Shown here piece after piece: positions 7,301 through 31,300 of a stretch of 64,000 bases of DNA (its first letter is position 1; the number at the start of each line of letters is the position of its first letter). Made by a program: the position numbers and the translations under genes. The stretch is from Lytechinus pictus. Lineage: Eukaryota. The stretch is taken from NCBI RefSeq assembly GCF_037042905.1, contig NC_087245.1, forward strand, positions 15,254,001-15,318,000, written 5' to 3'. The notes beneath the pieces were generated by a model. That model did not search any database. It worked only from the letters and a program-made list of their open reading frames with translations, and was not told the DNA's origin.

Positions 7301-10300
7301 GCCGATGAGGTAAAGAGGAGCTTGTCTATTGCATAAATTATAGTTTCTAGTTTGGTAGTGAATGTTGATTTACTGATTGATAGTTATAATGATATGTGTA
7401 AGTAGGTGTAATAAATGGTTACCCTGTAGGAAGAAATTCCACAAATGCTTTTGGCCTTGGCAGTCTATCAAATGCTAGGGTATGAATACCATCATCATGT
7501 TAAGCCAGACCTGCTCGGATAAAAGTTTTGTGAACTGAAGTGGCTAACCCTGGTAAATATGTTGTTATTATTATCATTATTATTGCTATGATTACTATGA
7601 TTATTAATTATTATCATTATTTTATTATTACCTGTTCCTATGAAGGCAGCTGGATTTGTTTAAGTGTGTCTTTCATCATAGTCAGAGATGGACTTGAGTT
7701 TTATTTGTATTACCTTGCTCAGGTAAATTTATTTTATTGTTATGGTACTAATTGTATCTCCCGAACAGAGTTCGGAGGATGCTATGGATTTGGCCTTATC
7801 GCGCCGCCGCAGAGATTCCCTTGTGAGTGCTCTATCAGCTGCATTTTTTCTTTGATCATCTTCAAATTTGGCATGAAGTTCAATTATGTTATAGCGAAGC
7901 CATCTATCGATTTTGTTGTAGGCGGAGACATTGTTCCATGGTAACAAAAGTTTTTGTGGGAATAGAGATTTCCTTGTGAGTGCTCTACTGGCTGCATTTC
8001 TTCTCCAATTATCTTCATATTTGTCATGAAGGTCCATTATGGTAACGTAAAGCCGCCTAATGATTTTGGAGTGGGTGGAGGCATGGTTTCCATGGTAACC
8101 ATATTTTTGTGGAAAATTTGGTAAAACCTGTAACTTGTGCTCTTTTTCCAGTTTGTCATAACAGTTGGCACACAGAAGCAATATTGGAAGGTGAAGCGAA
8201 GATGCCTATCATTTTTTATGGGGGTCTTAGGGTTAGGTTTACAATTATATCCAGATTACTCTATAATTGTATTCCCCAACAGGGGATACTGGACAATACT
8301 TTAGGTTCTGCAGAGTCACGCTACTGCGTCATATTATTGTCATCAAATTTCCTACCCAAAGGCAAATGTGGGCAGGGTCATTGTCGCCATGATAATTGTA
8401 TTTATTTGTCAAATTTCTGTGTGAGCTCTACATATCGCAAGGACGGATGACGCTGTGGGTTCGGGGGATACATGTGCTTGGCCACGCGACCCGCCGAGCA
8501 TCTCTAGTTGGTTTGAAATTACAGTAATTGCTTCACCAGATTGTCCTGATATGTAATAACAATTGCAGAATATTACGAGAACTCCTTTATACTAGAACTC
8601 CTTATACTACACTTTCTGTCACTTTTTAATGTAACACTTAAAATGACTTTTTCCAGTCATATTCTCCTACTATATTGGCAATCCAAAACTCCTTTTGTCT
8701 TGCAGAGTGTGTTCCCGGCAGAGAATACAAATGTATTTGGACTGAATGGATTAATAATGATTCTGGACAATTGCAATCTGAAAGTACTCCAGCTGAGGAA
8801 GTTGAACTTCTTGAAGATGCCCGGCACTTCCCCGGTTTCCCCAAAGTTTGCAACGTATTCGATATCCGGTGCAGGACCGTAGACACACATGTGTCGTGGA
8901 ATGAAACTACTGACGCTGTTACCGTTGATGTGAATACAGGTCTTCGCTGTATTAATATACTAGGAAGACCAATATGTCTGGACTATGAATGTAGATGGCT
9001 GTGCTGCAGTTGGCACACTGTCACTTGCTCACCACCTGGAACAACCACAGAAGGTAGTTGCATCAATCAAGTATTTTATCTAATTCCTAGCAGTATGACC
9101 AATATCACTGTAAATATGCCTTTAAAAGGTTTTGTTAATTGGAAAACATGTGTGTTGTTCTGATGCAGAAGTAAGGGATAAAGATAAAAGCTTTTTTTTA
9201 GACAAACATGATATCTACATGTATGTTTTTTTTTCTTAATATCTTAGGAAAATAAAGGATTGTGGGGAAAGTGTTGCTCTTTGTGTCAATATTCATGTCA
9301 GAGATGCTCTTTTAAGTTATTGAGATTTGTTTGAATTTCATTATCAAACAGTTTCATTGGAGGACATGTACACAAATTTAGTGAATTTACCCTTTGTTAT
9401 AGAATATTTCATGAACATTATGATTGGTGAAAATTGAATCAAACACAAATGAAATGTGATTTCCAAAGAAGAAATGTGAAAGGAGCATGATTGTGAAAGA
9501 TTTACAGGATGGGGAAAACAGTAAGATAGTTTTGAATTGTAGATTAATGATAGTAATCCTGTTTGGGGATGGAAGGGCAAGGACTTGCTCAATTCAATAG
9601 AAATGATTTGTCTGCATTTTTTAAAAAGTTAAAGATTTCTATTTTCATTTTGAATTGGATACTTGCAGACATAATATTCTGTTACCGTGGTTGATTTCCT
9701 TTTAATTGCGTTTCATTTGCTACTTACTTTGGAACAGAATATTGTCATCTTTCATCCTTTATGATAATATACATCTAGTTCTTCTTTACATGAACAAATC
9801 TAGGAACAACAACTGGAACCACTCCAGGCACAACAACAGGTACCACAACAGGAACAACAACTGGAACCACAACAGGAACAACAACAGGTACCACAACAGG
9901 AACAACAACTGGAACCACAACAGGTACCACAACAGGAACAACAACTGGAACCACTCCAGGAACAACTCCAGCCACCACAACAGGTACAACACAGGGAACA
10001 ATTGGCACAATATCTGGAAACATTCCAGAATATGGATAATGTATGAATGGCAGTAGACACAGTTAGGTCAAGTTTGTGAGAAAAGGACCATTTTTTATAA
10101 ATGCTTTGGTTACTCTTTTAATGAAGAAGGGAAGTTTTTGTCAGAGATGATACTTTATCACTCAAAAATCATAGGGATGGGGTCACCCTTCCTGCACTTC
10201 CTTTTGTGTCACCGACTTGATATCACCAGCCAGAAAGGAGATGGACAGATGATCATCTTTGAAAAGCTAGTTCGTTGTTCCACTCTGTGCATGATGAGAA

Positions 10301-13300
10301 TAAGGTCATTCGAACTCAAATAGCATGATAGTTTTAATATTCTTTTGAATTGTGCTTATCATTAGATCCTCCGGAAGCAGAAATGAGTCAATGAGCAAGT
10401 GGTATTTAAGAGTTTGCCAAGTACATTGGAAAAGCAACATGTGTAGTAGGTTTCACGGTACACCATGTATCTTTCTTGGGCATATGTTGGTCCTGAAAAG
10501 GACCACCCAATCTCGACGTTTCGACAAGTGTGTTCTTGTCGTCCTCAGGAGAATGAGCAAAGTTTGTAAAAGCAGGCCTTATATACTCTGTCGAAGTGCC
10601 GTATGCACGGTATCTCGCAGGGTACATGTCTCTGATTGGCTAGATAGGTCACATGACATCCACATATGCGGACGTGGGTGACAACACACAAATTAGGCGC
10701 GCAAAACCAGCGACGACCGGAAATGCTGTCAGTTATTATTCCCGCTAGGATTAGCATGAATGACAATAGTCACCACTTCCGCCCATGCACTGCAGTACTC
10801 ACACGTGTGTGGAACGTCCGGGTAGGCTAATTAGGCAAATTAGCCTCTTTGTCTAGAACGGTAAGCCAGATATTGCTGACTTGGAGGCCGCTGTCTTGAG
10901 GAACAGTGTTATGTTCCTCAATCTCCAATGCTTCTCTGACTCTCCGCTGATGCCAGTAGGGGACACGGGTGTCCAGTCTACTCTCATCCCAAAGAATCCG
11001 GTGATCATGCGTATGGGCATGATCGATGATTGCAGATTTTTTCCCTCTCGTCTCTCCTACCATGGGCCTTGTATTCCTTAATCCGAGTGTTGAAGGAACG
11101 ACCCGTCTCTCCGATGTAAACTTTACCGCATTCACAAGGAATTTGGTAAACTCCAGGGAGGTCCTTGGAGTTGCGCTTGTCCTTATGGGTAGTGAGGGCA
11201 GATTGAAGCTTATTTGAGGAACTATGACGAACCTCAATGTCGGCTTCTCTCAAAATCCTCTGAATTTTGTGAGAGGCTGCTCCCAGATATGGAAGAACGA
11301 CTCTCGCCTTGGGTTGTCCTACATGAGGGTTCCGCGAGGGGGGAAGATCAGTGCAGATCTTATGTGAGGGGTAGTTGTTACATTTCAAAACACATTTGAT
11401 ATGCTCAAGCTCACCTCTCAGGTGGATCTGGTCACTAACCTCATGCGCTCGTTTGACTAACGTCTTGTTGATGGATCACAGCACTGATGGGTGGTGGAAT
11501 GAACGATAGTTCAAGTACCGATCAGTGTGAGTAGGTTTCCGATAAACCTGATGGGATAGGGATCCCTGTGCCGTCCTCGTAATCTTTGTATCAAGAAGGG
11601 GGATAGACCCCTCATTCTCCATTTCCATGGTGAACTTGATACACTCGTGTTGAGAGTTGAGGTGCTGTAAGAAATTGCTAGTTTCCTCAGCACCGTGTTG
11701 CCAAACCACAAAAGTGTCGTCCACATATCTAAGCCACACTTTGGGTTTGTGGGTTGCTGACTGGAGAGCCGTCTCCTCGAAATGTTCCATGAACATGTTG
11801 GCTACCACTGGGGACAGGGGAGACCCCATGGCAGCCCCTTCCGTTTGCCTGTAGAATGTGTCTCTCCATCTGAAAGAGGTGGAATTGAGGCACATCTCAA
11901 GCAGGTCATGGATCTCTAGAGGAGACAACTGTGTCCTGTCAGGGAGAGTTCTGTCAAATTTCAATCTCTCAAGGATGATGGCGCAAGCATCCTTAACTGG
12001 TACACTTGTGAACAATGACTCAACATCAAAGCTGATGAGGAGGTCATTGTTAGAGACGTTCATCTGACAGATCTGCTCAACGAAATGTTTAGAGTTTCTC
12101 ACGTGATGCACGCCCTGACCAACAAGAGGCTGTAAGATGTAAGTCAAATGCTGAGCCAGTGTGTACGTGGGAGATCCTCTAGTAGACACAATAGGTCTGA
12201 GTGGAGTGTCTGGTTTATGAATCTTCGGTTGCCCAAAGATTATGGGACATAGACCAGACGAGCTCCGGAGTTGTCGGTAAATGGGTCTAGACAAGACATC
12301 CTTCCTCTGGAGAGAGAGGAGCTTATCGTTAACCCTACGTTCGATGGCCGGTGTGGGGTCTCTAGGAAGTTTCCTATAGGTCCCCGAATCCAGTAGTCTT
12401 TGAACCTTGGTCTCATAATCCAATCTGTCCATCACAACAGTAGCATTACCCTTGTCTGCCTTGAGAATATGAATGGAATTATCCTCTCGGAGACTAGCAA
12501 GGCCTGACTTCTCGGCTTTGGTGAGGTTGGGCCGAGGTGGGTTAACCAAAGTCAGTACTTGTGAGAATTGGATACGCACTGTGTCTGATTGAGACCGAGT
12601 AAGATGTGTGAGGCTGGGTTCAATCTTCTGGATGAATTCTTTTCCAAGAAAGATACATGGTGTACCTTGAAACCTACTACACTATTCTTCTTCGCCATGG
12701 AAACCTTCAGAAGTTATATAAAAGCAACATGCTAATGTATTAAAAAGTAGAATTGCCACAAATACCTTGATAAAGTATTTATTGATATGCTATTCTAGTC
12801 ACAAGTCCCATTCAATTTCTGCCTGCTATGTCAGGCATATTTAGATATTAATATCTTTGTGATTTACCCATCCTTATGAAAGAAAGGAAGGGTCAATTGT
12901 ATAAACTTGCCGATGAGGCAAAGAGGAGCTTGTCTATTGCAGAAATGATAATTTCTATTTTGGTAGTGAATGTTGATTTACTGATTGATAGTTATAATGA
13001 TATGTGTAGGTGTAATGAATGGTTACCCTGTAGGAAGAAATTCCACAAATGCTTTGGGCCTAGGCAGTCCATCAAATGCTAGGGTATGAATACCATCATC
13101 ATGTTAAGCCAGACCTGCTCAAATAACAGTTTTGGGAACTTAAAGTGGTTACCCCTGTTAAATATGTCGTTGTTGTTATTATTATTAATATTGCTATGGT
13201 TACTACGATTATTAATTATTAGTGTTGTTATCATTATTTTATTATTATGTGTTCTTATGAAGGCAGCTGGATTTTTGAAAGTGTTTCTTTCATCATATTC

Positions 13301-19300: not shown

Positions 19301-22300
19301 AGGTCTTCGCTGTATTAATATACTAGGAAGACCAATATGTCTGGACTATGAATGTAGATGGCTGTGCTGCAGTTGGCACACTGTCACTTGCTCACCACCT
19401 GGAACAACCACAGAAGGTACATTTGCATCAATCAAGTATTTTATCTAATTCCTGGCAGTATGACCAATATCACTGTAAATATGCATTTAAAAGGTTTTGT
19501 TAATTGGAAAACATGTGTGTTGTTCTGACGCAGAAGTAAGGGATAAAGATAAGAGCTTTTTTTTAAAGACAAACACGATATCTACATGTATGTTTTTTTC
19601 TTCTTAATATCATTTGAAAATAAGGTATTGTGGGGAAAGTGTCGCTCTTGGTGTCAATATTCATGTCAAAGATGCTCTTTTAAGTTATTGAAATTTGTTT
19701 GAATTTCATTATCGAACAGTTTCATTGGAGGAGCTGTACACAAATTTAGTGAATTTACCCTTTGTTATGGAATATTTCATGAACATTATGATTGGTGAAA
19801 ATTGAATCAAACACAAATGAAATGTGATTTGAAAAGAAGAAATGTGAAAGGAGCATGATTGTGAAAGATTTACAGGATGGGAAAAACAGTAGGATAGTTT
19901 TGAATTGTAGATTAATGACAGTAATCCTGTTTGGGGATTTCAGTTTTGTCACATACATGTACGTGATGTCATTGTGATATAGGGCAACGACTTGCTCAAT
20001 TTAATAGAAATGATTTGTCTGCATTTTTTTTAAAGTTAAAGATTTCCTTTTTCATTTTGAATTGGATACATGCAGACATAATATTCTGTTACCATGGTTG
20101 ATTTTCTTTTAATTGCGTTTCATTTGCTACTTACTTTGGAACAGAATATTGTCATATTTCATCCTTTATGATAATATACATCTAGTTCTTCTTTACATGA
20201 ACAAATCTAGGAACAACAACTGGAACCACTATAGAAACAACAACAGGCACTACAACAGGAACAACAACTGGAACCACTATAGAAACAACAACAGGTACCA
20301 CTACTGGAACAACAACAGGTACCACAACAGGAACAACAACTGGAACCACTCCAGGCACAACAACAGGTACCACAACAGGAACAACAACTGGAACCACAAC
20401 AGGAACAACTACAGGTACCACAACAGGAACAACAACTGGAACCACAACAGGTACCACAACAGGTACCACAACAGGAACAACAACTGGAACCACTCCAGGA
20501 ACAACTCCAGCCACCACAACAGGTACATTACAGGGAACAATTGGCACAATATCTGGAAACATTCCAGAATATGGATAATGTATGAATGGCAGTAGACACA
20601 GTAAGATCAAGTTTGTGAGAAAAGGACCATTTTTTATAAATGCTTTGGTTACTCTTTTAGTGAAGAAGGGAAGGGTAAAGTGTCCGAGATGATACTTTAT
20701 CACTCAAAAATCATAGGGATGGGGTCACCCTTCCTGCCCTTCCTTTTGTGTCACCGACTTGATATCACCAGCCAGAAAGGAGATGGACAGATGATCATCT
20801 TTGAAAAGCTAGTTCGTTGTTCCATTCTCTGCATGATGAGAATAAGGTCATTCGAACTCAAATAGCATGAAAGTTTTAATATTCTTTTGAATTGTGCTTT
20901 TCATTAGATCCTCCGGAATCAGAAATGAGTCAATGAGCAAGTGGTATTTAAGAGTTGGCCAAGTACATTGGAAAAAGTAACATGCTAATGTATTAAAAGT
21001 AGAATTGCCACAAATACCTTGATAAAGTATTTATTGATATGCTATTCTAGTCACCAGTTCCATTCAATTTCTGCCTGCTATGTCAGGCATATTTAGATAT
21101 TAATATCTTGCTTTGTGATTTACCCATCCTTATGAAAGAAAGGAAGGGTCAATTGTATAAACTTGCCGATGAGGCAAAGAGGAGCTTGTCTTTTGGAGAA
21201 ATGATAGTTTCTATGTTGGTAGTGAATGTTGATTTACTGATTGATAGTTATTGGAGGCGCGATAGCTCAGTCGGTAGAGCGGGGTACTCGTATTCCGGTG
21301 ACCCAGGTTCGATTCCCACTTTGTGCGCTAGTGCCCTTTGGTAAGGCATTAATCCTCATTACCAGGTCCTTCGGAGAGGACCTTAAGCCGTCGGTCCTCT
21401 GGTTGCTTGCTTACAAGCATTCATGCTTTCTTAGCAATCAGGTAAAAAATCACCACCATCAATATATAGATGGCTATGGTGAGATATTTATGTATGTTAT
21501 AATTATATGTGTACATGTAGGTGTAATAAATGTTTACCCTGTAGAAAGAAATTCCACAAATGCTTTGGGCCTAGGCAGTCCGTCAAATGCTAGGGTATGA
21601 ATACCATCATCATGTTAAGCCAGACCTGCTCGGATAACAGTTTTGGGAACTGAAGTGGCTACCCCTGGTAAAAATGTTGTTGTTATTATTATTATTAGTA
21701 TTATTGCTATGATTAATATGAATTTCAATTATTAGTATTATTAGCATTATTTTATCATTAGTGTTCTCATGAAGGCGTTTCTTTTATTATATTCAGAGAT
21801 GGACTTGAGTTTTATTTGTATTACCTTGCTCAGGTAAATTTATTTTCTTGTTGTTGTGGTATTAATTGGTTTGAAATTAATTGCTTCACCAGCTTGTCCT
21901 GATATGTCATGACAATTGCAGAATACTCAACTATTACTACATGTAGAACTCCTTATACTGCACTTTATCCCTCTCTTTAATGTAACACTTAAAATGACTT
22001 TTTTTCCAGTCATATTCTACTACTTTATTGGCAATCCAAAACTCCTTTTGTCTTGCAGAGTGTGTTCCCAGCAGAGATTACAAATGTATTTGGACTGACT
22101 GGATTAATAATGATTCTGGACAAATGCAATCTGAGAGTGCTCCAGCTGAGGAAGTTGAACTTCTTGCAGATGCCCGGCACTTCCCCGGTTTCCCTGAAGA
22201 TTGCAGCGTATTCGGTATCCGGTGCAGGACAGTAGACACACATGTGTTGTGGAATGAAACTACTGACGCTGTTACCGTTGATGTGAATACAGGTCTTCGT

Positions 22301-25300
22301 TGTATTAATATACTAGGAAGACCAATATGTCTGGACTATGAATGTAGCTGGCTGTGCTGCAGTTGGCACACTGTCACTTGCTCACCACCTGGAACAACCA
22401 CAGAAGGTAGTTGCATCAATCAAGTATTTTTACTAATTCGTAAATTATACAAATAGTATGAAGTATAATTAGAATTCTATTAGTAATAATGAAGTATAAG
22501 TCGAGGAGGATAGCATTTCCCAGGTGTTAGGCAGTGAAATTCACACAATGGGATTCAAAGCAATCAAAATTCCACACAGGACCAGTTCTCTATAAAAGGC
22601 CCTAACCAATGAATAGTAACCATCTTTTCAAAGACGGCTAAGGTCATACAAAAACACAAAGATCTTGTAAACAACTAAAAACAAGATTGCTTTCCAATCC
22701 ACTTAAGTAATTTTTCAAGATGTACACACCAAATAATCATTTGGTTTGCAAGAATTTGTTGTATGTGTTTGAATGGGGCGCCGTGGTCTAGTGGTTACGA
22801 CTCTCGTCTTTCAATCAGACGACATGGGTTCAAATTCCAGGCATAATGTGTTTTACTTCTGCAATGAATATACCCATCATGTGCTGCACTCAACCCAGGT
22901 GAGGAGAATGGGTACCGACAGGATCAACTCCTTGATTGCACTGAGCGCTAAGAGGCAGCTCGTGCTTAAGTCAAGGATAATATTACTAACAATGTGCCTC
23001 GGAATAGATTATTTCTAGATAGATGGCGCTATATTCCCACAAAATTCTCTCAAAATTGACTTCTGTATAATCGGGAGGGAATAAAATTGTTTTGATGCAG
23101 TCCTGCAGGGTGGGATCCTCCTCGACTTATACTTCATTATTACTAATAGAATTCTAATTATACTTCATACTATTTGTATAATTTACGAATTCTATTACGT
23201 AACATTCGTATAAGTCTTCAGAGGATAGCATGTTCAAAGCCACATATCAGAAGTCGATTTCAAACAATTTGAAAGTTATCTCCCATAATGATCTCATAAA
23301 GATCATATTATCCCAACGTGGTCATACGATGTTGCCACTTGCCAAACTAGAAATATTTATAACACTTCAGAATGAATTGACATTATGAAAATGTAATTAA
23401 GGAACACTGAATCAGCCAATGATTATATTTATATAATTATCAATAAACTGTTTCTCAATGAAGGCGAGGAAATTAATCAGTGAAATATTCCTCATCGATT
23501 CATCTTGCAAATTATCTCCAATCAAGTACATATCATACTTCTATATAATCCATTGATATAAATGTGAAATATTTTCACATAATTTTATATCATTTTAAGG
23601 TTTTCTACATCAGCAGTAGAGGCGAAAATGGCCTCACTGGAAGAGCCATATATAATAATTGACGTTTAAGATAAGAATAACTAATGTTGGAAGATTCATC
23701 GTACTATAGGATGAAAATAATATCTTGCTTCAGATATCAAAAGTCAAAATATTTCTCTATGATCAAATCAAAAGTTTATTGGTGAAGGAGGTAGTTAATT
23801 ATTGATGAAACGCGGAACAATTACTGAGGCATCATGGTCAGATGGTATAAAATGTAAAAACTAATTCAGTTTTTGATCTGAGACAAGGTTACTAAACGTT
23901 TTTAGGGGGGTTCCAATGGGTGAATACTAGAAAGTGCTCTTTGTCATGTTTGTGCACCTTTAACCTGAGAAGAGTAGTTTAGAAAAAACAATCAACAAAG
24001 AAGAATTCATAATTGAAGAGAACAGTAGTGATGTTCAAATAATTTTCTCATCGTACAAAATAACTTTCATGACAACTCTTGAAAGTGACATTTGGATGGT
24101 TCATTCAGCGTTTGAGCACGCTGGACGTAATTGCTGTCAGCAGAGAAGGGCAGAATTATTGACGTCAAAAAAATAAGAAGATATAATTTATGATTGCCCA
24201 AAAAAGATTAACATTCAACAATTTGGTACAATGAAATTGAATCAATCTTCCTTGTAATTTGGTGTGCCAAGTAAAAGGATATTCTCCCGAATTGGAAGTC
24301 CATAAAAGGCTGTAATGAACTTAGATGTAAGAATACTTGAAAAGAAAAGCTTCCTGAAAGATTTATAAACTTGATAACCATGGTTTAGATTAAATGAAAT
24401 TTCATGTTTTCAAATTTTGTTCGACTAATAAATTTTATCATTACAATTGATAAAGAGTTATATTGCTGTCAAATACTGTAATTGAGACAAGTTCAACAAG
24501 GATTTGTAGGCAGTAAATTGCCTTAATTCAATAATACTTGATTATCAGCATAGTGGTGGTCGAGGGTGTAGTTTACAGCACAGCTTGCAAAATTTGAGTT
24601 TATTCTTCTAATCAAACATACGTATCAATTTGAATAGTTAATGATATTGGTATTCATTTGATGGTGAAAAACAAACATGTTTTTTTTTTTTTTTTTTTTA
24701 ATATTGTTCTAGGGCATAGGTGCCGTGCAAGAAATTGATTCCTTAACATTTATGTTGGTAGTTAGCAGGTAAGATACCTTACAAAACATGATCGCGACAC
24801 CTATTAACATGCTAACGATATTAGCGGTGAATGAGATCATTAGTAATGAAAAAACTCAATTTCAGCGATACAAATGTACAAATCAAAGCAGCATCCTCTA
24901 GGGATCATAATGGCTTATAAAATATTTTATATCAGATGACTGATTGTTAACATTCATGAAAAGTTCTCTTGGGAATCCATGTATTATATAAAGTTACTTT
25001 ATATAGTTAAGTCTTCTTGGTAGCATATTGTATAATTTTGCATGGCACAACGTTGATGGTTCATGGTTGATAGTCTTGTACAAGATGAGTACAGGGTGGA
25101 AGAAATTTCAACTTTGATTAAACAATGGATCTCTATCCAGTGTTTTTACCAATACCAAAATTGTCGGAATGTCTGCATACATTCTAAACTTTTGAAAGGT
25201 TTAAAGGTTACTTAATCCAACTTGTTGTACACTTCGGGAATTTGGAATACTCTTAGTATCAACGGCTTGCGTTGGAAAGGATAATTAGGTGCTTTGTCAA

Positions 25301-28300
25301 GTTAGAAATCCGATCTGTTTAAATCTTCCTTGTTCAATCTTTTTAATCAAAATCTTCTTTGTTCAATGAATAGATAACAAGAATACATGTACATGTATAT
25401 AGGTCCATGGTCTGAAAAATCTTCAATGTAGGTTGTCAAGGACAACATGAATGAATGGGAAGGTCTATCAGCAAAAGAATGTTAAGGCTTGGACATGTAG
25501 CCTATTTACAAAGTCTGGAGAAAATGTACTAGCTACCTCTTTTAATATAAGAATAGGCCTATAGTAATGAGCTATTCATTTAAGCGCCTTGCACGGATGA
25601 ACTACTAGTTGGAACAATTTTGCGTGTATTATCTCTTGTTGTCTGGTCAAACTCAGACAATGTGATTTGCATCTTGGCAATTAAAATTTTCATTTCAACA
25701 TGAAGTTCCTTCCAGATCCATAATCATTTAACATGTATTAATGAAGCATTTTTTATCATGCTTTTTTCCTTTGAGGAAGTGTAAAGCTTCATATTACAAG
25801 CAACAAATGGATGATAGTTGAATTTCGTGACAAAACTTGGCTTTTCCCAGCTTAAAAGCAATTCAAATGACTATGAATTTGCCACTAACCAATCGGGTTA
25901 TGCGAATATGTAAAATGGTACAGTAGTAAGTCTAAGCATTGTCCACGCGAGTTGAGAGATATCTAGCGATAATATCGCTGTTGTGAAGCTCTTTGTACAA
26001 CTCTTTCACTTGTTTAAAACTTAACGCAAGAGCGTATCGATCATCGTTTTATAAACAGTGAAGAAGATTCCCTGCGTTGTGCAAAATGCCTTTTGTGTAC
26101 AATGCACTCTAGGTTATAAGGAGAGGCCTGCGCCAGTCCATGTTATAGCGATGTCAGTTATACTCCAAATTGATGCTTTTTAAACATGTTTAAACGAAAA
26201 TGGTTCTTGTAAAAGATTCCTATGAGGGATAATTCAAAATGTAGGCGTAACAATTTTTGTACATAGATACACATGTTCATAATGTCCGGGAATGTCACCC
26301 ATTATTATGATATGGCGAAAGATTCATGCCAATCTATGGCAAAGGAATGGTAGCATCTATAGAGTAAGAAACTCTCCATCTTTGGGATGGTGAAAACAAA
26401 ATCGACTGTCAGAGCAGTATTAACTAATACAAGTAAATCCAGTACACAGTTGGCCATGACCATCAGTATTATCGGTGCTCCGGTGTCGTATTGAATTCTT
26501 CTGTACACAATCCGATTGGAATATAGGCGTATATATAGCAATTACTCGACAACCATTTTAAGAAGGGTTAAATTAAATCCCTTGGTCCAGCACATTTGCT
26601 GTTATTGGTTGGTATACCACACATTAGAACGAGTATTGTAGAAAATTTGGCAATGCCAAGTAAGAAAAGTTGGAAGCAATTTTATTATTCGGATGAATTG
26701 AAGTCAAAATAAGGCTGTAATAAGGGTAAGGCTCGCAATCCAAATCAGTGACATGGTTCGATGTCATATCAGCATACGGCTTAATTCGATAAACCAAAGA
26801 GTTTACAGAGTAAATCATTATAATGATGTGAAGGTGTGCTGAATCAGCGAAATTTCAAAAAGAAAAGATAGGGCAGCGCCCTAATGAAGAAACAGTGTAG
26901 GGCAGCGCCCTGATGTATAAAGGTATGGCTCACGTACCAAATATATGGGTGGAGGAGCCCTCCTGCCCAAGTCAGCATGACTCGCATGCCTTAAAATATC
27001 AGAGACTGCCATGATAGCTGCCGCTTTAACTCAACTCCAGGCAGCTTTCCATGCCTGCTCCCCAACGGAGAGCAGGGCTGAAGGAGACCGTAGGCTTACG
27101 TCTCCTCAATACTCACCATGAAGATAAAGATGTGTAGTCACTGCCGTCACACTTGAAAAAGATGGTTACTATTCATTGGTTAGGGCCTTTTATAGAGAAC
27201 TGGTCCTGTGTGGAATTTTGATTGCTTTGAATCCCATTGTGTGAATTTCACTGCCTAACACCTGGGAAATGCTATCCTCTGAAGACTTATACGAATGTTA
27301 CGTAATAGAATTCCTGGTAGTATGACCAATGTCACTATAAATATGCATTTAAAAGTTTTGTTAATTGGAAAACATGTGTGTTGTCGTGATAAGGAAGTAA
27401 TGGATAAAGATAAGAGCTTTTTTTTAAAGACAAACGCGATATCTACATGTATGTTTTTTTTCTTCTTAATATCATTTGAAAATAAGGTATTGTGGGGAAA
27501 GTGTCGCTCTTGGTGTCAATATTCATGTGAAAGATGCTCTTTTAAGTTATTGAAATTTGTTTGAATTTCATTATCGAACAGTTTCATTGGAGGAGCTGTA
27601 CAGAAATTTAGTGAATTTACCCTTTGTTATGGAATATTTCATGAACATTATGATTGGTGAAAATTGAATCAAACACAAATGAAATGTGATTTGAAAAGAA
27701 GAAATGTGAAAGGAGCATGATTGTGAAAGATTTACAGGATGGGAAAAACAGTAGGATAGTTTTGAATTGTAGATTAATGACAGTAATCCTGTTTGGGGAT
27801 TTCAGTTTTGTCACATACATGTACGTGATGTCATTGTGATATAGGGCAACGACTTGCTCAATTTAATAGAAATGATTTGTCTGCATTTTTTTTAAAGTTA
27901 AAGATTTCCTTTTTCATTTTGAATTGGATACTTGCAGACATAATATTCTGTTACCATGGTTGATTTCCTTTTAATTGCGTTTCATTTGCTACTTACTTTG
28001 GAACAGAATATTGTCTTATTTCATCCTTTATGATAATATACATCTAGTTCTTCTTTACATGAACAAATCTAGGAACAACAACTGGAACCACTATAGAAAC
28101 AACAACAGGCACTACAACAGGAACAACAACTGGAACCACTATAGAAACAACAACAGGTACCACTACTGGAACAACAACAGGTACCACAACAGGAACAACA
28201 ACTGGAACCACTCCAGGCACAACAACAGGTACCACAACAGGAACAACAACTGGAACCACAACAGGAACAACTACAGGTACCACAACAGGAACAACAACTG

Positions 28301-31300
28301 GAACCACAACAGGTACCACAACAGGTACCACAACAGGAACAACAACTGGAACCACTCCAGGAACAACTCCAGCCACCACAACAGGTACATTACAGGGAAC
28401 AATTGGCACAATATCTGGAAACATTCCAGAATATGGATAATGTATGAATGGCAGTAGACACAGTAAGATCAAGTTTGTGAGAAAAGGACCATTTTTTATA
28501 AATGCTTTGGTTACTCTTTTAGTGAAGAAGGGAAGGGTAAAGTGTCCGAGATGATACTTTATCACTCAAAAATCATAGGGATGGGGTCACCTTTCCTGCC
28601 CTTCCTTTTGTGTCACCGACTTGATATCACCAGCCAGAAAGGAGATGGACAGATGATCATCTTTGAAAAGCTAGTTCGTTGTTCCATTCTCTGCATGATG
28701 AGAATAAGGTCATTCGAACTCAAATAGCATGAAAGTTTTAATATTCTTTTGAATTGTGCTTTTCATTAGATCCTCCGGAATCAGAAATGAGTCAATGAGC
28801 AAGTGGTATTTAAGAGTTGGCCAAGTACATTGGAAAAAGTAACATGCTAATGTATTAAAAGTAGAATTGCCACAAATACCTTGATAAAGTATTTATTGAT
28901 ATGCTATTCTAGTCACCAGTTCCATTCAATTTCTGCCTGCTATGTCAGGCATATTTAGATATTAATATCTTGCTTTGTGATTTACCCATCCTTATGAAAG
29001 AAAGGAAGGGTCAATTGTATAAACTTGCCGATGAGGCAAAGAGGAGCTTGTCTTTTGCAGAAATGATAGTTTCTATGTTGGTAGTGAATGTTGATTTACT
29101 GATTGATAGTTATTGGAGGCGCGATAGCTCAGTCGGTAGAGCGGGGTACTCGTATTCCGGTGACCCGGGTTCGATTCCCACTTTGTGCGCTAGTGCCCTT
29201 TGGTAAGGCATTAATCCTCATTACCAGGTCCTTCGGAGAGGACCTTAAGCCGTCGGTCCTCTGGTTGCTTGCTTACAAGCATTCATGCTTTCTTAGCAAT
29301 CAGGTAAAAAATCACCACCATCAATATATAGATGGCTATGGTGAGATATTTATGTATGTTATAATTATATGTGTACATGTAGGTGTAATAAATGTTTACC
29401 CTGTAGAAAGAAATTCCACAAATGCTTTGGGCCTAGGCAGTCCGTCAAATGCTAGGGTATGAATACCATCATCATGTTAAGCCAGACCTGCTCGGATAAC
29501 AGTTTTGGGAACTGAAGTGGCTACCCCTGGTAAAAATGTTGTTGTTATTATTATTATTAGTATTATTGCTATGATTAATATGAATTTCAATTATTAGTAT
29601 TATTAGCATTATTTTATCATTAGTGTTCTCATGAAGGCGTTTCTTTTATTATATTCAGAGATGGACTTGAGTTTTATTTGTATTACCTTGCTCAGGTAAA
29701 TTTATTTTCTTGTTGTTGTGGTATTAATTGGTTTGAAATTAATTGCTTCACCAGCTTGTCCTGATATGTCATGACAATTGCAGAATACTCAACTATTACT
29801 ACATGTAGAACTCCTTATACTGCACTTTATCCCTCTCTTTAATGTAACACTTAAAATGACTTTTTTTCCAGTCATATTCTACTACTTTATTGGCAATCCA
29901 AAACTCCTTTTGTCTTGCAGAGTGTGTTCCCAGCAGAGATTACAAATGTATTTGGACTGACTGGATTAATAATGATTCTGGACAAATGCAATCTGAGAGT
30001 GCTCCAGCTGAGGAAGTTGAACTTCTTGCAGATGCCCGGCACTTCCCCGGTTTCCCTGAAGATTGCAGCGTATTCGGTATCCGGTGCAGGACAGTAGACA
30101 CACATGTGTTGTGGAATGAAACTACTGACGCTGTTACCGTTGATGTGAATACAGGTCTTCGTTGTATTAATATACTAGGAAGACCAATATGTCTGGACTA
30201 TGAATGTAGCTGGCTGTGCTGCAGTTGGCACACTGTCACTTGCTCACCACCTGGAACAACCACAGAAGGTAGTTGCATCAATCAAGTATTTTTACTAATT
30301 CCTGGTAGTATGACCAATGTCACTATAAATATGCATTTAAAAGTTTTGTTAATTGGAAAACATGTGTGTTGTCGTGATAAGGAAGTAATGGATAAAGATA
30401 AGAGCTTTTTTTTAAAGACAAACGCGATATCTACATGTATGTTTTTTTTCTTCTTAATATCATTTGAAAATAAGGTATTGTGGGGAAAGTGTCGCTCTTG
30501 GTGTCAATATTCATGTGAAAGATGCTCTTTTAAGTTATTGAAATTTGTTTGAATTTCATTATCGAACAGTTTCATTGGAGGAGCTGTACAGAAATTTAGT
30601 GAATTTACCCTTTGTTATGGAATATTTCATGAACATTATGATTGGTGAAAATTGAATCAAACACAAATGAAATGTGATTTGAAAAGAAGAAATGTGAAAG
30701 GAGCATGATTGTGAAAGATTTACAGGATGGGAAAAACAGTAGGATAGTTTTGAATTGTAGATTAATGACAGTAATCCTGTTTGGGGATTTCAGTTTTGTC
30801 ACATACATGTACGTGATGTCATTGTGATATAGGGCAACGACTTGCTCAATTTAATAGAAATGATTTGTCTGCATTTTTTTTAAAGTTAAAGATTTCCTTT
30901 TTCATTTTGAATTGGATACTTGCAGACATAATATTCTGTTACCATGGTTGATTTCCTTTTAATTGCGTTTCATTTGCTACTTACTTTGGAACAGAATATT
31001 GTCTTATTTCATCCTTTATGATAATATACATCTAGTTCTTCTTTACATGAACAAATCTAGGAACAACAACTGGAACCACTATAGAAACAACAACAGGCAC
31101 TACAACAGGAACAACAACTGGAACCACTATAGAAACAACAACAGGTACCACAACAGGAACAACAACTGGAACCACTCCAGGCACAACAACAGGTACCACA
31201 ACAGGAACAACAACTGGAACCACAACAGGAACAACTACAGGTACAACAACAGGAACAACAACTGGAACCACAACAGGTACCACAACAGGTACCACAACAG

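Follow-up and report, generated by a model that had tools for sequence, protein, structure and literature searches.

In the replication model for DIRS1 retrotransposons, the sense transcript lacks parts of the termini, an internal complementary region (ICR) templates their repair, the cDNA circularises and a tyrosine recombinase (YR) inserts it; the available part of the source calls this model not fully proven and proposes ICR deletion as a test (PMC5633606). Elements without their own proteins have been placed in the same group, and TOC1 of Chlamydomonas reinhardtii, for example, is called a non-autonomous DIRS retrotransposon (PMC9940879). Here we describe a 4,874-bp insertion on the minus strand of a 64,000-nt stretch of Lytechinus pictus contig NC_087245.1 (positions 15,254,001 to 15,318,000, hereafter the window). 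It has the ends and ICR of a DIRS1 element, was inserted recently and has no coding capacity. We read it, with a probability of about 0.82, as a non-autonomous DIRS1-type retroelement of near-autonomous size.

Insertion site, ends and age

The window is a tandem array of mucin-type gene units on the plus strand, each about 2.7-3.1 kb long and consisting of a WxxW exon (PF13330, E 2.2e-09) and a Thr/Gly-rich repeat exon. Among the 19 units examined, one carries the insert, which lies antisense to the mucin gene and 33 nt inside its intron (GT donor at 22407, where contigs from the public sequencing runs X1 and X3 terminate). The orthologous site is empty in the other 18, and excising 22440-27313 yields the sequence of that site. 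The word AATTC (plus strand) is single in the 18 empty sites, flanks the insert on both sides in the 19th unit and recurs where the two ICR halves overlap; we therefore take it to be the crossover core of the predicted circle junction and target, with no ordinary target-site duplication (TSD). The features are as follows, in positions of the window (rE, right extension; SINE, short interspersed element).

22440-27313, minus strand: whole putative non-autonomous DIRS1-type insertion, 4,874 bp with one copy of the 5-nt core counted, delimited by the filled versus the 18 empty units
22435-22439, second copy at 27309-27313, no strand assigned: 5-nt predicted crossover core, AATTC on the plus strand and GAATT on the element strand, containing ATT; common to the target, both ends and the ICR junction
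27280-27313, minus strand: left terminus, divergent part of the inverted terminal repeat (ITR), 34 nt, complementary to the left ICR
27152-27279, minus strand: left conserved ITR, the same as the right one over 123 nt, up to a 1-nt indel
26850-27151, minus strand: 5' leader, GC-richer (49%), with several short hairpins
23232-26849, minus strand: non-coding interior, 31-37% GC, with a T21 tract at 24680-24700; no open reading frame (ORF) and no detectable gag, reverse transcriptase (RT), RNase H (RH), methyltransferase (MT) or YR
23187-23231, minus strand: left ICR, 45 nt, 100% complementary to the left end
23115-23191, minus strand: right ICR, 77 nt, 100% complementary to the right end
about 22775-23034, plus strand: putative decayed tRNA-head SINE relic, antisense to the element, between the ICR and the right ITR
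22506-22633, minus strand: right conserved ITR
22472-22505, minus strand: right divergent ITR part, 34 nt
22440-22471, minus strand: rE, 32 nt, complementary to the right ICR only
22056-22406, plus strand: host mucin exon with a WxxW domain (Pfam PF13330, E 2.2e-09); X1 and X3 contigs stop at 22407

The conserved ITRs (22506-22633 and 27152-27279) are 98% identical over 128 nt (123 nucleotides agree without a break, and a T run then differs in length by 1 nt), and the whole ITR, including the 34-nt divergent part on each side, is 93.7% identical over 159 columns. Of the 117 nt of the ICR (23115-23231), 77 are 100% complementary to 22435-22511 and 45 are 100% complementary to 27269-27313, the overlap being the 5-nt core; the whole ICR folds into a hairpin (z -8.2). 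Read along the element strand, the order is a 34-nt divergent ITR, the 123-nt ITR core, the interior, ICR halves of 45 and 77 nt, a SINE-bearing spacer, the right ITR core, its 34-nt divergent part and a 32-nt rE. The element thus has the cis features by which DIRS1 elements are recognised: an ITR with conserved and divergent parts plus an extension, two overlapping ICRs near the 3' end that are fully complementary to both termini, and ends of NTT type (mostly ATT) that are complementary to the circle junction, with insertion where the target carries the same word. The sizes of the terminal parts (34 nt for the divergent ITR, 123-128 for the conserved ITR, 32 for rE and 45 + 77 for the ICR, with ATT ends and an AAT junction) and the total size all fall within the ranges given in the available part of Piednoel et al. 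2011 (PMC3266345). Long direct repeats are absent from the element, so the split-direct-repeat layout of PAT, TOC and Ngaro elements is not found here.

The insertion is recent. Over 600 nt per flank there are no differences from 6 of 11 sister units, in which identity extends to the junction itself, and 1-11 differences from the other five, edge artefacts included; the 95% upper bound on divergence between flanks and sisters is 0.25%. The ITR core and the ICR/terminus pairs show no substitution in about 245 nt, which bounds divergence since the last copying at about 1.2%. The first-pass annotation of this stretch had described 22440-27313 as a full-length element with ~130 bp ITR cores differing by about one indel, an ICR matching both termini exactly and a host unit almost identical to its empty sisters, and had called the insertion recent; the measurements above agree with it in each respect.

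Coding content and geometry of the interior

The interior has no detectable trace of protein-coding sequence. Its longest stop-free stretch between the ICR and the left ITR is 78 aa (5-95% range of the null, 74-122 aa), and an 81-aa frame sits in the SINE relic. Stops are evenly spread over the frames (70-90 per frame), and three-base periodicity is 1.12, compared with 1.02 in the null and 1.62 in an intact element. Pfam returned no match in six whole frames and 24 sub-windows, and neither did a phmmer search with one of the six frames (23230-26798) against 1.84 billion representative proteins.

We compared the element with a reference panel of 119 loci from metagenome contigs, 80 of them with flanks, found by a DIRS1 RT motif; seeded by this one motif, the panel under-samples DIRS1 lineages that do not have it. 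It yielded 22 pol, 21 YR and 22 gag ORFs, and a homologue search added 120 pol proteins. In a Pfam check, RT was present in both pol ORFs and YR in one of the two YR ORFs examined, and inverted terminal or ICR matches occurred in 20 of the 33 panel loci of at least 4.5 kb. Searching the element by tblastn with 221 panel ORFs gave a best E of 0.011 and nothing collinear, hmmsearch --max with the DIRS1 gag, pol and YR panels likewise gave nothing collinear, and blastn of the element against the 119 loci gave a single 20-nt match (E 0.01). Frameshift-aware profiles on the sense strand scored at null level for the ORFs that define DIRS1, pol (RT, RH and MT; 22 sequences, 24.2 versus 23.9 ± 2.4) and YR (21 sequences, 19.2 versus 21.5 ± 1.8), and gag scored 15.3 versus 18.4 ± 1.0 with a weak profile of unmeasured power. 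A 115-sequence pol profile with a codon-decay model gave 22.2 versus 21.4 ± 2.3 and 26.3 versus 25.9 ± 2.6, and was also null on the antisense strand. Matches from a tblastn search with the 120 pol proteins (best E 0.002) were rejected, since in 9 of the 12 listed the C-terminus of pol falls some 750-970 nt from the 5' end, which disagrees with the gene order of DIRS1.

The power of these profiles sets the limits of the null results. With pol, all five held-out elements still exceeded the null maximum when decayed by 0.5 nominal hits per site, and had dropped to it at 0.6; with the 115-sequence profile, two intact elements scored 58-104 at 0.5 substitutions per site, and an already broken one (L027) was at the null in 4 of 6 trials. 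The YR profile reaches about 0.3-0.4 nominal hits per site in 4 of 5 held-out loci, the fifth being uninformative. The absence of detectable DIRS protein similarity therefore implies that the interior has either decayed past about 0.5-0.6 substitutions per site or was never DIRS coding sequence. The first-pass annotation had reported faint RT/RH/YR motifs, which find no support: Pfam and the one-frame phmmer search gave no hits, the frameshift-aware alignment and the tblastn and hmmsearch comparisons are at null level, and motif matches found by eye in the translations were dropped as chance. Its statement that no ORF exceeds ~80 aa holds between the ICR and the left ITR, the SINE relic containing the 81-aa frame. 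It had also described a ruined coding interior; that the interior formerly encoded DIRS proteins finds no support in protein similarity.

Geometry offers a further comparison. Five metagenome DIRS1 elements with intact ends (all three terminal matches) are 4,706-5,083 bp long, with an ICR of 115-139 nt and 4,327-4,675 nt from the 5' end to the ICR; the same measures for the window element are 4,874 bp, 117 nt and 4,082 nt, and a variant in run X1 carries about 358 extra nt at 24839/24840, which would bring the distance from 5' end to ICR to about 4,440 nt. Aligned with the window ICR, that of L027 scored 44 (0 of 200 mononucleotide shuffles as good), that of L032 was equalled in 1 of 200, and the other three in 13-16 of 200. 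This geometry, which fits the compact DIRS1 clade, slightly favours descent or a constraint on length. Overall, we give slightly better than an even chance to the interior being a DIRS1 body decayed past recognition, and slightly less than an even chance to foreign filler.

Some further observations concern the ends and ICR. L027, a metagenome-contig DIRS1 copy with broken ORFs, has an ICR nearer to that of the window element than any other in the panel, and may point to the clade of a helper. The right terminus carries an inner second copy of the left-end start (22472-22477 and 23144-23149; 11 nt identical), possibly an alternative recombination core, and a similar inner repeat is visible by eye in the ICRs of five panel DIRS1 elements.

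Variants, transcription and rival explanations

Part of the element is held by 20 of 23 listed public runs, none with more than 40% of its words; four runs were aligned at 80% likeness. Runs X1 and X3 (organism A) probably come from the window's species, judging by exon pieces with 0, 1 and 7 differences. Four X1 contigs span 23202-27279 with small gaps and 2.1% substitutions. Among the X3 pieces listed, four have no substitutions (910 nt) and three have 9/227, 20/280 and 10/387 (2.6-7%); one of these extends from the right ITR into the SINE relic, which is thus carried by other variants as well. In the DNA run X9, from organism B, all 30 of 30 bins are covered; six major pieces are 6.7% divergent at depths of 117-174, and two minor ones are 9.8% divergent at depths of 18-21. 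Single SINE-bearing contigs in that run have depths of roughly 29-33, a rough comparison that suggests several near-identical copies in organism B. As a score in the hundreds of bits would be expected of any intact element at 7% divergence, the variants in both organisms are gene-less too, and the loss of coding therefore predates the split between the variants of A and B, unless there was recent crossing between species. On this point the first-pass annotation had proposed that the interior was non-coding by the time of this jump and that the lineage is long-lived and of near-full length, both of which the variants across the interior in two organisms bear out. The marks of a non-autonomous element (no proteins, intact cis ends, recent movement and multiple copies) are thus found, multiplicity resting on sequence variants and not on mapped loci.

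At 15 listed sites in 22974-26259, the window departs from a letter shared by X1 and organism B; 11 of these departures run from AT to GC and 2 from GC to AT. The skew (p about 0.02) is post hoc and drawn from 40 of 576 difference rows, and may reflect RNA editing or RT bias in the window's sub-lineage.

The element also appears to be transcribed at a low level. In the stranded run X21 (about 6% of it read), first mates from the interior lie on the plus strand at depths of 0.1-7.6, with almost none on the minus strand, and those from mucin exons lie on the minus strand; the opposite orientation implies that the interior RNA is element-sense and is not mucin pre-mRNA. In X1, the multi-copy mucin intron has a depth of 0 and the interior one of 30-60, which argues against DNA carry-over. 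Among indexed runs holding the element, none is on record as an RNA run.

The best reading of the family is a long-lived analogue of large retrotransposon derivatives (LARDs) that would be mobilised in trans. Under the DIRS1 model, transcription of a family member would proceed from the left ITR, with Gag, RT/RH and YR provided by an autonomous DIRS1 whose ends are compatible. The missing ends would be rebuilt from the ICR and the left ITR, resetting end identity at each jump; the cDNA would close into a circle, and YR would recombine the core at its junction with a genomic core that matches. Carried along, free of protein constraint, would be the interior and the old SINE relic. The first-pass annotation had likewise proposed mobilisation in trans and ends renewed by replication, the latter in line with this model. 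The identity reset at ITR and ICR, the junction/target core, the sense RNA and the unconstrained interior all fit the model as outlined in PMC5633606 with proteins acting in trans, the helper, the circle and the RT step being predicted by analogy with DIRS1.

Other histories would place the loss of coding later. An autonomous DIRS1 might have decayed where it stands, with its flanks homogenised afterwards by gene conversion among the mucin units, and the array does homogenise (sister units are 0-4 substitutions apart over about 2.5 kb). However, conversion from empty sisters cannot preserve the identity of the ITR core and of the ICR/terminus pairs while the interior loses more than 0.5 substitutions per site, and in 6 of 11 sisters the flanks of the insert match without a difference as far as the junction; as the ITR/ICR bound is independent of homogenisation, decay in place is excluded by it, and we consider this history extremely improbable. 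An old insertion with converted flanks was also the outcome that the first-pass annotation had set against its own reading, and the identical ITR core and ICR/terminus pairs contradict it. We consider it just as improbable that the element was intact until its last jump and was then ruined by a single round of hypermutation, with its RNA or cDNA edited in the manner of a deaminase. The AT-to-GC skew described above is what such editing might leave, but the variants found along the interior in two organisms, at 2-10% divergence, cannot be intact elements, the interior itself is rich in AT with stops across all frames, and the ICR of the same transcript is unedited relative to the ends.

The mode and extent of movement can also be questioned. 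The strong ICR hairpin and the lack of an RT remnant would suit movement as DNA, by a tyrosine recombinase acting on a folded strand or excised circle (Crypton-like) without reverse transcription. We judge this quite unlikely, given that RT-encoding DIRS1 elements agree with this one in the full lITR-lICR-rICR-rITR-rE layout, in its dimensions and in the sequence of the ICR, that a probable RNA run gives near-full-length coverage alongside sense reads in X21, and that exact identity between ICR and termini is a prediction of templated end repair. It is very unlikely that there is no active family and that the public-run variants are alleles of a single locus or a few polymorphic loci, as the lack of a second observed insertion site and the possible pooling of samples might suggest. 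Alleles of a young insertion with flanks less than 0.25% diverged cannot differ by 2-7%, and organism B has both major and minor variants, the major at several times the rough single-contig depth.

Several points weigh against a trans-mobilised DIRS1-type family. The motif common to both ITRs and both ICRs is 6 nt long (11 nt three ways), compared with at least 10 nt in the available part of PMC3266345, and no DIRS protein remnant ties the interior to DIRS1. A gag score of 25.4 on the wrong (plus) strand exceeds the maximum of 20.1 of the other-strand null (20.4 versus 20.2 with stricter gaps). No helper was identified: a 24-nt ITR word had no match in viral contigs, and no whole-genome search was made. 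Among the contigs and joints listed, none bridges a second insertion site and no read spans a circle junction; the X1 and X3 variants could partly be alleles of a few loci in pooled animals, and depth in X9 is not copy number. As for transcription, depth in X21 is low, the reads listed for it at 26003-26034 show at least 9 mismatches to the window and therefore come from other copies, and the RNA nature of X1 and X3 is a guess.

The 5' leader (26850-27151; z -2.15, 3 of 100 shuffles equally good) contains a 29-bp two-copy repeat with a short palindrome (26860-26915) and is weakly indicated as a candidate cis signal. Besides the ICR, only 4 of about 60 folding windows have z below -1.8, and Rfam gives four matches in the element, all far under gathering scores. 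The relic at 22775-23034, which the first-pass annotation had overlooked, is labelled a putative SINE from its very high read depth and tRNA-like loose ends; it has no library match, and ARAGORN finds no tRNA gene in it. A tRNA-like head, seen in translation, also occurs in the mucin intron of every unit (window about 21250-21450), with no blastn match to the relic.

Elsewhere in the array, the units on either side of the insert (19452-22439 and 27314-30301) both carry a Thr-rich repeat allele longer by 24 bp (2,988 versus 2,964 bp), and variants of the older type occupy the first 700 nt of the upstream unit, so that a boundary of recombination between the old and the new type of unit lies beside the insert. 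An older mucin unit contains a second insertion at 10441-12720 with an RT frame on the minus strand (11476-12681, 401 aa, RVT_1 E 7.3e-12), followed by a frame that is GIY-YIG-like by eye; we presume it to be a Penelope-like element. About 750 bp at 7754-8505 are missing from sister units and include a 153-bp two-copy repeat (7811-8112), probably a further inserted repeat.

Comparison with known systems

With the cis features of DIRS1 present and its ORFs undetected, the element is classed as a non-autonomous DIRS1-type derivative, outside the DIRS1 retrotransposons proper. The gain is moderate, since DIRS elements that are non-autonomous have been described before; in the literature searched, which did not cover subscription papers and Repbase, we found no description of a full-length gene-less family of the ITR/ICR type. 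That an element without genes, but with perfect ITR and ICR, continues to insert where junction and target agree suggests that these sequences are what is needed in cis, and such an element could serve directly as a backbone for reporters. The length it has kept poses the question of a size constraint, and repeats of this kind would escape protein-based annotation of transposable elements. More tentatively, and with considerable doubt, we suggest that gene-less DIRS1-type elements of autonomous length might form a standing class, a YR counterpart of LARDs that persists across species and still moves. A length rule, from packaging or from ICR-templated closure of the circle, would hold the distance from 5' end to ICR near 4.1-4.4 kb and prevent shrinkage to miniatures, and annotation by protein would overlook the class.

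By Repbase usage, the 'N' in the name DIRS-N1 stands for non-autonomous, and the label thus suggests a catalogued non-autonomous DIRS. That element, from zebrafish, is named in the available part of PMC5400779, and we liken it to ours by label alone. TOC1 resembles the window element in being non-autonomous and of the YR-retrotransposon order; TOC elements have split direct repeats (PMC3266345, as far as available), unlike the inverted repeats and ICR found here. The closest match in structure is with DIRS1-like retrotransposons, in particular the compact group with non-overlapping ORFs (NveDIRS6b, LgDIRS and AcaDIRS; available part of PMC3266345), which share the layout, ATT ends, AAT junction, repeat and total sizes and junction/target insertion. 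The window element differs from them in having no detectable gag, RT/RH/MT or YR, in the SINE relic between ICR and right ITR, and in a shared core at the site of 5 nt instead of 3 nt and a four-way motif of 6 nt instead of at least 10 nt. LARDs, by contrast, are plant elements with long terminal repeats (LTRs), an integrase and conserved RNA structure; direct LTRs and an integrase-type TSD are absent here, where the ends are inverted, insertion is of YR type, the duplicated 5 nt also occur in the ICR junction and the interior has little structure. What the window element shares with LARDs such as Sukkula, as described in the available part of PMC7215508, is a large non-coding interior, intact cis signals, assumed trans-complementation and persistence across related species.

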